Under the pieces are notes generated by a model. That model was not told the DNA's origin, ran no database searches, and saw nothing but the letters and a program-made list of their open reading frames with translations. 64,000 bases of DNA from an uncultured cyanobacterium (lineage in GTDB: Bacteria; Cyanobacteriota; Cyanobacteriia; Cyanobacteriales; CAWCAG01), in assembly GCA_963803805.1 (NCBI GenBank), contig CAWDOD010000004.1:256001-320000 (forward strand), given 5' to 3'. Every line of letters starts with the position of its first letter. Positions within the stretch are counted from its first letter, which is position 1. This document shows, in pieces, positions 52,994-64,000 of this stretch. The translations under genes were made by a program, and so were the position numbers.

Positions 52994-53836
52994 ATGACTT
53001 CCACTGTTATTAAAGCAACAGCAAACACCTACATCAAATCTGAAATTCAAGAGGCATTACAATTGCCTGAAACTCAAAAGACTGTCATCTCCAAAGATAC
53101 AGTATTAGAACTTACAGATATTGCAGGGCTTGATCGTTCTCACTATCAAATCACTCTCAAAGAGCCTCTTAAAGAATTCGCTCTTTCCACTGGTTTTGTC
53201 TTCGCTCCCCACTGGGGTATTGTCAGTAGTGATGATCCTGACATCTTAAAAGAGTCAGCACCAAAGCACAAAAATCCAGCAGTACAAAGACAAATAGACC
53301 GGATAAGCAAGTATTTGCCAGTTGCTCTGTCCCTAAATCTAGAGACAAAAACTAAGTATTTTAGCCAACGTGACAACTATACAATGCCCCATCGAACCTG
53401 CTGTAGTAGTAGCAATGCTATGTATTTGGACTGGCTGTTGCGGGTGACAGGAAAAGCAGGATTAGATAGTGATAACGGCTATCTTAAAAAAGTTTTGGCT
53501 AACGGCGATACGATCTATCACCATGTACAGAGCGAGACTATTGCTGAGTATGGTTTCAAGACAAAATGGATGACCGATGCTGATTTAGACTTCGTTGAAG
53601 ATTTGGTAGATACCGGTTTTCCTGTAGTGGTGAATATCCTGCACCGTGGTAGTACAGCTAAACCCCGTGGTGGACACATTATTATGTTGATTGCCCGCAA
53701 AAACGGCTACTGGCTTGCCCATGACCCCTATGGCACATTAGAATCGCAATATTCCGTCACTAGGGGTGAGTACAGCCGAATCAGTGAAAGAGAATTTGCT
53801 ATCAGATGGCAAGGTGGTTACAGAATTCTTAAGTAA
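52994..53836 (+). CDS. C39-like (papain-fold) peptidase with an N-terminal SH3-like domain
   Basis: YFSQRDN (Q), RTCCSSS (C), GGHII (H) and HDPYG (D); AGGAG RBS. Confidence 0.8.
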   Translation: MTSTVIKATANTYIKSEIQEALQLPETQKTVISKDTVLELTDIAGLDRSHYQITLKEPLKEFALSTGFVFAPHWGIVSSDDPDILKESAPKHKNPAVQRQIDRISKYLPVALSLNLETKTKYFSQRDNYTMPHRTCCSSSNAMYLDWLLRVTGKAGLDSDNGYLKKVLANGDTIYHHVQSETIAEYGFKTKWMTDADLDFVEDLVDTGFPVVVNILHRGSTAKPRGGHIIMLIARKNGYWLAHDPYGTLESQYSVTRGEYSRISEREFAIRWQGGYRILK

Positions 53837-54010
53837 CAGGACTAGGGAAGCTAGGGATTAAGATTTATGGGCTTTAACTCAGTATCAAATACCCCATAAA
53901 CTAAAATTTGTTGAGAAACCAGCTTCCCTTTAATTGAAGGCAGAACTAGCAATGTTCTGTTTGAATTTAAACCTCTAGTTACTTCATAGTTTTTATTTCT
54001 GGGAATTAAG

Positions 54011-62278: not shown

Positions 62279-62350
62279 CGCAGGTTTCCTTGATAGCGGG
62301 TTTTTAAGAACCAGATTTGGCATCATTACAAATAATTCTTGAGTAAGAAA

Positions 62351-64000
62351 ATGTTTAAACGCAACCTCGCTTTCGTTATTGGTATCAACAACTATCAAAA
62401 CGGCATTCCCCCCCTCAAGACTGCTGTTAACGATGCTAAAAAGCTTACAGAAACTCTACAGACTAAACATGGCTACCGAGTATGGGTTTACTTAGATGAA
62501 ATAGCTACCCTCCAAAATCTAATAAAATTCCTTGAAGAAACATTACCGGAGCAAGTTAAGGGCGATGACCGTTTGCTATTTTACTTTGCTGGTCATGGGG
62601 TTGCTCTTAATGGGGATGATGGGCCGGCGGGCTATTTAATTCCTCAAGATGCTTCCCTGGGGGATACTAGTACCTATTTTCCCATGGCTAAGTTACACAA
62701 TGCTTTGACCCAGCTCTGTTGTCGTCATTTTTTGGGGGTTCTCGACTGTTGCTTTGCAGGTGCTTTCCGTTGGTCTAGTAACAGAGATGTAGTTATTCCC
62801 ACCAAGGTGATTCACAAAGAAAGGTATGACCGCTTTATTACTGACCCCGCCTGGCAAATTATTACCTCCTCAGCCTCTGACCAAAAAGCCCTAGATAACT
62901 TTAATTTAGATACACAACGGGGTCAACTTGGAGAACACTCGCCTTTTGCAACTGCTTTGTTAGAAGCACTAGAAGGGGCAGCGGATATTTATCCTCCTCC
63001 TCAATCAGGGCAACCCGGTGGAGATGGGGTTATTACTGCAACTGAGCTATATTTGTACTTGCGCGATCGCATCGAAATTTCTACAGAACAAATTAGCCAC
63101 AGGCAAACCCCAGGAATTTGGTGTTTAAATAAACATGACAAAGGGGAATATATCTTTTTGTCTCCAGGACACAAACTCAATTTACCCCCAGCCCCTCCCC
63201 TTGATGAATCCCAGAATCCCTATCGTGGTTTGCGCTCATTTGAAGAAGAACATAGTAATCTATTTTTCGGCAGACAAGCTTTGATAGAACAATTGTCTCA
63301 ACAAGTTTACCAACAACCTCTAACTGTTGTTCTAGGGGTTTCGGGAAGCGGTAAATCTAGCTTAGTTAAAGCAGGATTAGTACCTTATCTTAAAAAGTTT
63401 AATCCCCAGCAATGGCACATTCTTACCCCTCTGCGCCCTGGAGAGTCACCGTTATTAGCTTTAAATCGAACCTTAGCAGCAGATAATCTGGTTGTAGATG
63501 ATGAAGTTGAGATCAAAGACAAGTTGACAAACTGGTTAGAGCAAAATTCTCAAACTAAATTGCTCCTTGTCATCGACCAAACAGAAGAATTATTAACCCT
63601 CTGTCGCGATGAAGAACAAAAAGAAAACTTTCTCAAACTCTTAGCAGAATTACTCCTTAACTACCCAGAAAATTTACGAATTGTCCTCACCTTACGGAGT
63701 GACTTTGAACCCCAATTTGCCAATTCTGTTCTAGAACCCTATTGGTATTCCTCTCGGTTTATCGTACCAGCCATGACACGGCAGGAATTAAGGACTTGCA
63801 TTGAAGAACCAGCCTCGGCAAGGGTTATGTATTTTGAACCCCATAGCTTGGTGGAACAGTTGATTGATGAAGTAATACAAATGCCTGGGGGATTACCTTT
63901 GCTGTCTTTTACCCTAAGTGAACTGTACTTGCAATATTTAAAGAGTGTCAGGAAGAGGTACAAGGAAAGACAGAGCTATTACTCAAGAAGATTACGAAAA
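62351..64000 (+). CDS. Second caspase-STAND NTPase paralogue (3'-truncated by the window; possible frameshift near 63950)
   Basis: Not in the ORF track; manual translation gives MFKRNLAFVIGIN, FYFAGHG, LDCCFAG, NPYRGL, GVSGSGKSS and LRSDF. Confidence 0.88.
   Translation, partial: MFKRNLAFVIGINNYQNGIPPLKTAVNDAKKLTETLQTKHGYRVWVYLDEIATLQNLIKFLEETLPEQVKGDDRLLFYFAGHGVALNGDDGPAGYLIPQDASLGDTSTYFPMAKLHNALTQLCCRHFLGVLDCCFAGAFRWSSNRDVVIPTKVIHKERYDRFITDPAWQIITSSASDQKALDNFNLDTQRGQLGEHSPFATALLEALEGAADIYPPPQSGQPGGDGVITATELYLYLRDRIEISTEQISHRQTPGIWCLNKHDKGEYIFLSPGHKLNLPPAPPLDESQNPYRGLRSFEEEHSNLFFGRQALIEQLSQQVYQQPLTVVLGVSGSGKSSLVKAGLVPYLKKFNPQQWHILTPLRPGESPLLALNRTLAADNLVVDDEVEIKDKLTNWLEQNSQTKLLLVIDQTEELLTLCRDEEQKENFLKLLAELLLNYPENLRIVLTLRSDFEPQFANSVLEPYWYSSRFIVPAMTRQELRTCIEEPASARVMYFEPHSLVEQLIDEVIQMPGGLPLLSFTLSELYLQYLKSVRKRYKERQSYYSRRLRK

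Follow-up and report, generated by a model that had tools for sequence, protein, structure and literature searches.

The 64,000-nucleotide stretch of DNA from an uncultured cyanobacterium analyzed here (contig CAWDOD010000004.1, positions 256,001 to 320,000; referred to below as the window) ends in four genes on the same strand, designated g1 to g4, of which g2, g3 and g4 probably constitute one conserved functional cassette that acts as a proteolysis-gated death module. In the best reading of these proteins, g3 and g4 would be single-pass membrane receptors, in which a caspase domain and an nSTAND1 nucleoside triphosphatase (NTPase) are followed by a predicted transmembrane (TM) helix and WD40 repeats, and g2 would be a soluble latent effector, in which a caspase domain of its own is joined to a lipase-like alpha/beta hydrolase. 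A preliminary description of the window had listed a C39-like peptidase and three tandem C14 (caspase-family) genes, each with a His/Cys dyad, one fused to a lipase-like hydrolase and two to STAND NTPases, separated by a divergent region of 418 bp from a protease arm on the other strand. This layout is confirmed by the positions and plus-strand orientation of the open reading frames (ORFs) and by their Pfam and PADLOC matches: the GHG and DCC motifs are present in g2, g3 and g4, the hydrolase of g2 is a DUF7379 domain, g3 and g4 both carry nSTAND1, and the divergent region has the length given (Table 1).

The g2 protein opens with a metacaspase-like domain, which matches Pfam C14 over residues 6-274 (1.1e-21, 78 bits against a cutoff of 21.4) and the PADLOC 'caspase' model (2.6e-40). 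In the AlphaFold model of g2 (mean predicted local confidence, pLDDT, 74.8), the N-terminus is matched by Foldseek to the plant metacaspases 4 and 9 (E ~1e-12; 6w8r at 7.7e-13) and to 9n3d, MALT1 and GSU0716. Motif conservation was counted in 37 g2-family sequences (32 full-length and 5 short forms): the dyad is invariant in 37/37, and R170 and R172 of the p20-p10 linker are likewise kept in 37/37. The region that follows the caspase is the part by which the family is recognized. Residues 275-870 have no Pfam assignment, and a sequence profile of the middle region run against the PDB yields nothing better than E 0.12. Folded alone, the region forms a string of beta-sandwiches (pLDDT 73), whose Foldseek and VIA matches are generic Ig-, PapD- or MSP-like sandwiches with a best Z of 7.6, within background, accompanied by weak structural matches to ZU5 and GAIN-like domains. 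Its best Atlas score, 0.84, lies under the 0.9 level and offers a lead only, to a cluster in which 17% of the members contain DUF4384. When the middle region is used as a profile, 2320 clusters (50% identity) are retrieved at E<=1e-3, a number that falls to 747 at E<=1e-30; most are ~1150 residues long and share the layout of g2. The disordered loop within it carries an Arg-rich motif whose R637, R641 and R645 are conserved in 29, 29 and 31 of the 32 full-length sequences, respectively, and in 5/5 short forms, and it may be regarded as a candidate processing or docking site.

At the C-terminus of g2, DUF7379 is matched at residues 873-997 (4.1e-17), with weaker matches to PGAP1, LCAT and thioesterase families, and Foldseek relates the domain to bacterial lipases (6wpy at 1.2e-7, 2hih, 4hs9 and 8s9r, representing BlEst2 and the enzymes of S. 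hyicus and P. mirabilis, and SAL2). The features of a lipase-type alpha/beta hydrolase are all present, namely a nucleophile elbow with Ser953 in A-H-S-M-G, Asp1097, His1125 and an oxyanion HG motif at 877-878; among the full-length sequences, they are kept in 30 (Ser953), 32 (Asp1097), 31 (His1125) and 31-32 (HG) of 32. No hydrophobic segment is found in g2, the Kyte-Doolittle maximum being 1.38. A short form of the protein (~670 residues), which stops just past the Arg-rich loop and lacks the lipase, occurs as an intact ORF in 18 loci.

The g3 protein contains an nSTAND1 module (PF20703) at residues 292-709 (3e-101, 340 bits; cutoff 27.1), with the Walker A sequence GASGSGKSS, and at least 12 WD40 repeats by Pfam, arranged in propellers at ~901-1460. 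In g4, nSTAND1 is matched at 2e-69 (235 bits, with a further 105 bits for the frameshifted remainder), Walker A reads GVSGSGKSS, and the secondary STAND matches are NACHT (2.5e-7) and nSTAND6 only. By profile, the caspase domains belong to C14: like g2, g4 exceeds the Pfam cutoff (3.4e-19, 69.9 bits; cutoff 21.4), and the domain of g3 (residues 1-285), for which C14 is not among the 25 Pfam matches listed, is recognized by the PADLOC 'caspase' model (6.3e-14), by an NF047832 match of 6.3e-20 that is below that model's cutoff, and by 60% identity to g4. The dyad is invariant in 40/40 of the g3-family sequences compared. Two family assignments were considered and rejected: the EACC1-associated caspases (NCBIfam NF047832), for which g2, g3 and g4 score 51.3, 71.6 and 65.1 bits, under the cutoff of 140, and the Apaf-1/AP-ATPase (NB-ARC) family for g3 and g4, both of which match nSTAND1.

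According to the preliminary description, only one of the STAND proteins carried WD40 repeats. In fact, g4 runs past the window, and in the 18 kb of sequence that continues beyond its end (L005), it is colinear with g3 over the whole length, WD40 propellers included; the apparent single WD40 sensor was thus a window-edge effect. In the assembly, g4 is spread over four frame segments (frames 1, 2, 3, 1). Contigs of X1, a public and independent sequencing run that holds this DNA, possibly from the same sample (depth ~7-9), have one base fewer at window position 63951 (L005 1952), at L005 2518 and at L005 3219, which are exactly the three frame break points of g4. These contigs also differ by two substitutions, at L005 2517 and 2933, with none reported in the other covered parts of 4.5 kb. 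Removal of the three bases restores a single ORF of 1460 residues, 43% identical to residues 1-1485 of g3 and with a hydrophobic segment near residue 799, so that an intact g4 exists in the sample; the breaks are either assembly errors or a strain variant, between which the contigs alone cannot decide. The possibility that g4 is a pseudogene was rejected on the basis of the X1 contigs, in which the three extra bases are missing. Proteins of the g3 type (64-69% identity to g3) and of the g4 type (67-77% identity to g4) are both found in other genomes; g3 and g4 are old paralogues and do not stem from a recent duplication.

Between the STAND module and the WD40 repeats, g3 and g4 each possess a single hydrophobic helix, which was absent from the preliminary description. 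Across the g3 family, TM-type segments were defined as 19-residue stretches with a Kyte-Doolittle value of at least 1.6, located 30-150 residues past the STAND module: such a segment is present in 52/60 members (window g3 included), almost none of which has another elsewhere, and WD40 repeats are found at the end of 48/60. Lys and Arg number 4.69 on average in the 15 residues before the helix vs 1.87 after it, the N side being higher in 49/52. By the positive-inside rule for membrane-protein topology, this charge asymmetry predicts that the caspase and nSTAND1 portions of g3 and g4 are cytoplasmic and that the WD40 propellers lie outside the cytoplasm.

Relatives of g2 were collected from species-representative genomes: the single protein gave 11 loci, and an alignment gave 237 confirmed stretches, of which the best 80 were used; the set of g2 homologues comprises 89 loci in all (L006-L094), and full-length homologues with 34-72% identity are encoded in 59 of them. 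Adjacency was counted in 76 informative loci, after 13 with less than 3 kb downstream of g2 had been dropped. A caspase-nSTAND1 gene on the same strand starts within 2.5 kb downstream of g2 in 55/76 loci and within 1 kb in 43; such a gene lies anywhere downstream in 61/76, and two of them are present in 10, as in the window. For two of the 55 (L062 and L082), the adjoining caspase went unflagged by the script, and Pfam finds one in L062 and a shortened one in L082. A hand count of record titles assigns the adjacency loci to 18 or more named genera (Nostocales, Oscillatoriales and Pleurocapsales-like cyanobacteria), and the gene order g2, g3-type, g4-type recurs in L072 and L037. Within the 5.3-Mb genome to which the window belongs, g3 and g4 are the sole genes combining a caspase with nSTAND1, and they stand beside the sole g2. 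When 1216 flanking ORFs are clustered all-against-all, only two families recur widely, that of g2 in 84 loci and that of g3 in 58; the next in size is represented in 11 loci. At the planctomycete locus L009, a CHAT-nSTAND1-FGE-sulfatase gene and a PDZ gene precede the g2 homologue, an arrangement that, judged by its domains, follows the same logic in a second phylum with protease and sensor swapped.

The partners are also found within single polypeptides. In L062, an ORF of 2973 residues has the order C14-middle region-DUF7379-C14-nSTAND1-Peripla_BP_6, and the length of the library protein P0008 equals that of this ORF. The periplasmic-binding-protein sensor of the L062 ORF fits a sensor that faces outward. 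Among 14 long members of the g2 family drawn from a library of 1.84 billion proteins, the g2 module is joined to nSTAND1 in seven (P0007, P0017, P0022, P0034, P0039, P0080 and P0104), to CHAT in two and to S8 in one, and four have no further domain. In P0034, with the order C14-nSTAND1-middle region-DUF7379, the caspase-NTPase of the sensor replaces the caspase of g2.

Table 1. Coordinates of the cassette and of the neighboring features, in window positions.
Feature	Position	Strand	Remarks
S8 arm	49082..52575	-	P5, S8, PrcB-like and P6; context, outside the cassette
P6	49082-49726	-	214 aa; acidic N-terminal leader, very basic C-terminus
PrcB-like	49778-50155	-	NCBIfam dentilisin PrcB 1.3e-16, below its cutoff
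S8 protease	50161-51885	-	PADLOC 'subtilase' match 2.2e-54
P5	52048-52575	-	175 aa; acidic N-terminal leader, hydrophobic C-terminus
Divergent intergenic region between P5 (-) and g1 (+)	52576..52993	.	418 bp
Four ORFs g1, g2, g3, g4	52994 to window end	+	all on the plus strand
g1, C39_2-like cysteine peptidase	52994..53836	+	280 aa; Pfam PF13529; outside the conserved cassette
g2, putative effector	54011..57490	+	1159 aa; caspase + beta-sandwich middle + DUF7379 hydrolase
g2 caspase domain, metacaspase-like	54011..54850	+	residues 1-280; H86, C146/C147
g2 middle region, several beta-sandwich domains	54851..56590	+	residues 281-860, ~590 aa; defines the g2 family
g2 disordered loop with Arg-rich motif	55871..55975	+	residues 621-655; G-[TS]-L-N-R-L-M-N-R-x-Q-x-R-D; pLDDT 27-35
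g2 lipase-like alpha/beta-hydrolase domain	56591..57490	+	residues 861-1159; DUF7379, PGAP1, LCAT
g3, putative sensor caspase	57782..62278	+	1498 aa; caspase-nSTAND1-TM helix-WD40
g3 predicted TM helix	60227..60283	+	residues 816-834; IAIAVMAGLSLLTLWASFN; Kyte-Doolittle 1.75; strongly basic flank before
g4, second putative sensor caspase	62339..64000	+	continues past the window; whole gene = L005 340 to ~4740

Extra cargo is present in some cassettes, where it follows g2, separates g2 from the sensor, or separates two sensors. In six loci, this is a DUF1400 + PAF-acetylhydrolase-like alpha/beta hydrolase (e.g., L048 5013-6761, L054 13642-15300 and L066 18786-20426), and in four a TPR-CHAT protease (e.g., L050 7200-10220, L053 13747-17478 and L067 13785-17189). 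A gene of ~296 residues without a Pfam match, unrelated to g1, immediately precedes g2, in the same orientation, in 11 loci of a Nostoc/Calothrix subset (e.g., L048 229-1119, L063 8729-9619 and L068 8706-9578). In L087, a plasmid record of Nostoc sp. C117, three consecutive genes encode the full g2, the short form and a g3-type sensor, and this plasmid copy hints at mobility of the cassette. Pfam and PADLOC scans of 12 and 9 neighboring ORFs of at least 80 residues returned no gasdermin-named match. Across 51800-64000, promoter-like sites number 27, about the shuffle expectation of 23.2, and terminators fall below theirs (6 vs 10.4), so that these scans say nothing on operon structure.

The proposed mechanism starts with ligand binding by the extracytoplasmic WD40 sensor, which would lead to NTP-dependent oligomerization of the STAND module and, through proximity, to activation of the STAND-borne caspase as an initiator. 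Orthocaspases have Arg/Lys specificity at P1. In the proposal, the initiator caspase would make its cuts behind Arg residues of g2, located in the p20-p10 linker, in the loop 621-655, or in both. This processing would turn on the g2 caspase, as an executioner, and unlock the lipase, whose attack on membrane lipids would result in cell death or arrest; the biological role may be anti-phage defense or another kind of conflict. In its most elaborate form, the proposal becomes a two-tier caspase cascade across the membrane, composed of a WD40 receptor on the outside, a cytoplasmic STAND 'apoptosome', and an initiator that cleaves a separate, lipase-fused executioner caspase, which we regard as possible rather than probable. 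If true, perception of a signal outside the cytoplasm would end in destruction of the membrane from within, and the 2320 g2-family clusters would make up a death system, large and so far unstudied, of multicellular bacteria as well as a close prokaryotic counterpart of the initiator/executioner logic of caspases.

Several observations weigh against such a death module. No conserved R-G sites like those of a published hydrolase (discussed below) were seen by eye in g2 residues 861-1159, and the export of a WD40 domain of ~650 residues is predicted from hydropathy and charge only. Short g2 forms without the lipase are also paired with sensors, in 13/19 loci classed as short or truncated, which means that the lipase cannot be the sole output. 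The loci come from related genomes, many of them Nostoc, and their counts overstate independence. Further points, which concern the coupling of the genes to one another, are taken up below together with the explanation that they favor.

The same cassette might operate with reversed logic, g2 being a decoy or inhibitor, or an upstream maturation protease, of g3 and g4, and the sensor caspases being the death effectors. The intact caspase dyad of g2 and the sensor pairing of its lipase-less short form would suit this arrangement, as would L061 and L087, where the full and the short form of g2 and a sensor are lined up as a regulator-plus-effector set might be; moreover, dominant-negative roles have been proposed for some effector-position peptidases, according to the passages available of PMC7159879. 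The published idea, however, applies to catalytically dead peptidases, which g2 is not; its lipase catalytic set is kept in 30 to 32 of 32 sequences, as expected of an output enzyme, and the position of the middle region and lipase in P0034, C-terminal to caspase-nSTAND1, fits cargo and not an upstream activator. We consider the reversal improbable. A less remote alternative retains the mechanism and changes its biology, from phage defense to developmental or social cell death, for instance filament fragmentation by sacrificial cells, recognition of kin or non-self in the manner of fungal WD40 NLRs, or suicide under envelope stress. Cues from the periplasm or from outside the cell, more than phage proteins in the cytoplasm, would match the predicted outward orientation of the WD40 domain and the periplasmic-binding-protein sensor of L062; record titles show the family to be concentrated among planctomycetes and among cyanobacteria that are filamentous or colonial, and kin recognition has been raised for STAND systems of multicellular bacteria (PMC10907252, as far as available). 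Against this, the taxonomic bias may stem from the search patterns and the database, and the accessory island described below, with its absence from a congener, the plasmid copy L087 and the shuffling of lineages are traits typical of conflict systems, so that this alternative appears somewhat unlikely.

Two further explanations dispense with the cassette as proposed, and both seem very improbable. In the first, g2, g3 and g4 are independent single-gene systems gathered in one hotspot, without functional coupling. In its favor, 15/76 loci have no same-strand caspase-nSTAND1 gene downstream (L006, e.g., lies among housekeeping genes), which indicates that g2 may lack a neighboring partner or have one at a distance. 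The variable extra cargo points in the same direction, as do the incongruent lineages of g2 and the STAND genes: the nearest relatives of the window g2, in L017 and L022 (70-72%), come with STAND genes that share only 40% identity with g3, which argues against tight pairwise co-evolution. What speaks for coupling nonetheless is the same-strand adjacency across genera, with an equivalent pairing in a second phylum, the repeated in-frame fusions, the want of any other recurrent gene family around g2, and the fact that the genome has its sole g2 right beside its sole two caspase-nSTAND1 genes. The second explanation came from the preliminary description, which had joined the caspase arm and the S8/'pro-toxin' arm into one proteolytic cascade, in which the S8 zymogen or the leader-bearing precursors would be substrates of the caspases, or the roles would be reversed. 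The two arms are adjacent and divergent and share one ~30.6-kb accessory stretch, and an S8 protease does sometimes join a g2 module: in L084, its gene is located between g2 and g3, and P0087 is an S8-C14-middle region-DUF7379 fusion. The enzyme of L084 is 32% identical to that of the window, though, and that of P0087 only 25%. Lack of co-occurrence in other genomes had been named beforehand among the outcomes that could refute the idea, and the arms did not co-occur in any other genome examined. Homologues of every window ORF of at least 70 residues from 39.7 kb onward were sought in the 89 g2 loci by tblastn and blastp (L014-L016, fragmented contigs of metagenome-assembled genomes, were excluded from the Pfam neighbor scan and kept in the tblastn counts): P5, P6, PrcB and HtrA are represented within ~10 kb in 0/89, g1 in 0/89, and S8 in 1/89, the L084 gene.

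The S8 arm recurs, without the cassette, as a colinear unit of its own. In 150 other genomes of the same order, S8 is matched at E<=1e-40 in two, G053 (60% identity) and G077 (39%), and P5 only in G053. The G053 contig (L120 1-5200) encodes in a row two P5-like proteins, S8, PrcB, a leader-bearing ORF and a second PrcB; it begins at the first P5-like gene, its upstream side being outside view. This genome, 99% complete, has no g2 orthologue, the best match (E 1.5e-5) covering a caspase fragment. P5, P6 and the third such ORF, in G053, have in common an acidic N-terminal leader of ~40 residues, followed by unrelated C-termini. Because the leader ORFs travel with S8 and one or two PrcB-like genes, leader-dependent processing by S8/PrcB is suggested. 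A related-locus search with the S8 protein produced no confirmed relative. The S8 arm thus looks like a system of its own, and a false lead is removed: the subtilisin and leader-peptide neighbors would be separate from the caspase cassette.

Among known systems, the metazoan apoptosome (Apaf-1/caspase-9/caspase-3) joins a WD40 sensor to a STAND oligomer driven by NTP, with an initiator caspase that is followed by a second one. The cassette resembles it on paper only and is not a member of that group because its NTPase is nSTAND1, not NB-ARC; in addition, its putative initiator is fused to the STAND module instead of being recruited through CARD, its sensor is predicted to be extracytoplasmic, and its second caspase is fused to a lipase. 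The preliminary description had called the caspase-STAND-WD40 architecture Apaf-1/NLR-like and linked it to conflict and cell death, and this agrees with the literature in the parts available of PMC8195603, PMC7159879 and PMC13581612: a 2026 STAND survey (PMC13581612) includes Apaf-1-like proteins of cyanobacteria in which an N-terminal caspase is combined with WD40, and in conflict systems caspase domains have alpha/beta hydrolases as neighbors (Kaur et al. 2020, PMC7159879). The nSTAND1 clade was named by Kaur et al. 2021 (PMC8195603); g3 and g4 belong to it and have the same tripartite build as the proteins of that study, and they go beyond its available passages in having nSTAND1 instead of NB-ARC, a conserved TM helix before WD40, and the fixed partner g2.

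The logic of the cassette has recent precedents. In the available text of a 2025 preprint (Evans et al., PMC12642450), a caspase-like protease cuts an alpha/beta-hydrolase zymogen at two Arg sites, with death as the outcome, such proteases are borne on STAND or beta-transducin sensors, and transmembrane STAND ATPases are mentioned for another module. Like the LcCaspase and LcHydrolase of Lysobacter capsici described there, the cassette links a caspase-like protease to a lipase-like alpha/beta hydrolase, with STAND and beta-transducin-type sensors: the hydrolase, fused in g2, is linked to a sensor-borne caspase-like protease by adjacency in 55/76 loci and by fusions. The published hydrolase, however, is a free protein of ~300 residues, whereas its counterpart here is the C-terminus of the 1159-residue g2, with a caspase and a 590-residue beta-sandwich region of its own; the sensor caspase of the cassette is a separate, predicted membrane protein; and the published family is found in Actinobacteria and Pseudomonadota, that of g2 mainly in cyanobacteria. 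DUF7379 is placed beside LcHydrolase by description, not by sequence, and figures or supplements of the preprint may show similar architectures. A second precedent is the SAVED-CHAT/PCaspase system of a type III-B CRISPR/CBASS hybrid, in which SAVED-CHAT cleaves and activates PCaspase (Steens et al. 2023, 10.1101/2023.06.23.546230, as far as available). Both systems have two caspase-family proteases per locus, of which the sensor-linked one is activated by oligomerization, a step proposed in the case of the cassette; SAVED-CHAT/PCaspase differs in its SAVED sensor, which binds cyclic triadenylate (cA3), and in having neither lipase nor membrane anchor, where the cassette has STAND and WD40 and a presumed cascade. 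Cyanobacterial orthocaspases (PMC8283722, PMC7475262 and PMC5756287) share with the cassette the C14 p20 domain, the His/Cys dyad, the many copies per genome in filamentous cyanobacteria and, in some cases, WD40; judged by their abstracts, these surveys treat genes singly, and no mention of the g2 architecture or of its pairing with a sensor was found there.

Neither the g2 architecture, nor its pairing or fusion with transmembrane caspase-nSTAND1-WD40 sensors, nor the size of the family was found in the literature searched, whose figures or supplements may show them; no paper on DUF7379 was found, and none of relevance that joins orthocaspase and lipase, and the one paper found to treat transmembrane STAND proteins together with caspases is PMC12642450. 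Each single idea is thus known, and the architecture of g2 and its fixed pairing with a sensor are new as far as the searched literature goes. Cyanobacterial caspase-STAND-WD40 proteins, often cited as relatives of the apoptosome, thereby gain a specific and testable partner: a predicted soluble protein with an intact caspase and lipase, whose gene is next to that of the sensor in the majority of loci, with occasional fusions of the two. Should g2 be activated by the sensor caspase, bacterial protease cascades would have a second example, protease-gated alpha/beta-hydrolase effectors would extend to a large cyanobacterial family, and some bacterial STAND receptors would read signals from outside the cytoplasm.

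The first gene of the run, g1, is in the best reading a neighbor of the cassette within the same accessory island and not a partner, and the same applies to the S8 arm. The only Pfam match of g1 is Peptidase_C39_2 (2.4e-7, 31.9 bits; cutoff 24). Close orthologues (58-81% identity) occur in three sampled genomes, where the genes of neither arm adjoin them. In L111, the g1 domain stands behind a GH19 domain in a protein of 923 residues, and in L108 the neighbor of the orthologue has the first 100 residues of g1 and a phage-lysozyme domain at its end; because of these domain swaps, g1 is probably a cell-wall hydrolase. A role as a bacteriocin-processing C39 peptidase was considered and rejected, the match being to the broad C39_2-like family and the linkage of the lysozyme type. 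No ABC exporter is located beside g1 or its three orthologues (GG motifs in P5 and P6 were not checked).

The preliminary description had also spoken of a defense island. Loosely taken, this holds, both arms lying within one accessory stretch of ~30.6 kb, from window ~48724 to L005 ~17380. At the syntenic site of G027, a genome of the same genus, the stretch is replaced by 30 bp, with anchors of 2.2 kb at 83% identity on the left and, weakly, 94 bp at 75.5% on the right, and G027 has no g1, g2, S8 or P5. No tRNA was found at either edge. The island contains a third STAND sensor, a protein of 1184 residues with NB-ARC (1.3e-13) and WD40 and no recognized effector domain, whose gene (L005 5605-9159, minus strand) is convergent on g4. 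A XisI/XisH pair (L005 10274-11010, minus strand; 6.9e-47 and 2.3e-55) also lies inside the accessory stretch. Two short dispersed repeats, both intergenic and one of them between AraC and XisI, are present at L005 ~9900-10107 (~208 bp, with at least 7 sites in G027 at ~81%) and at window ~43725-43904 (~130-180 bp, with ~10 sites in G027 at 71-87%).

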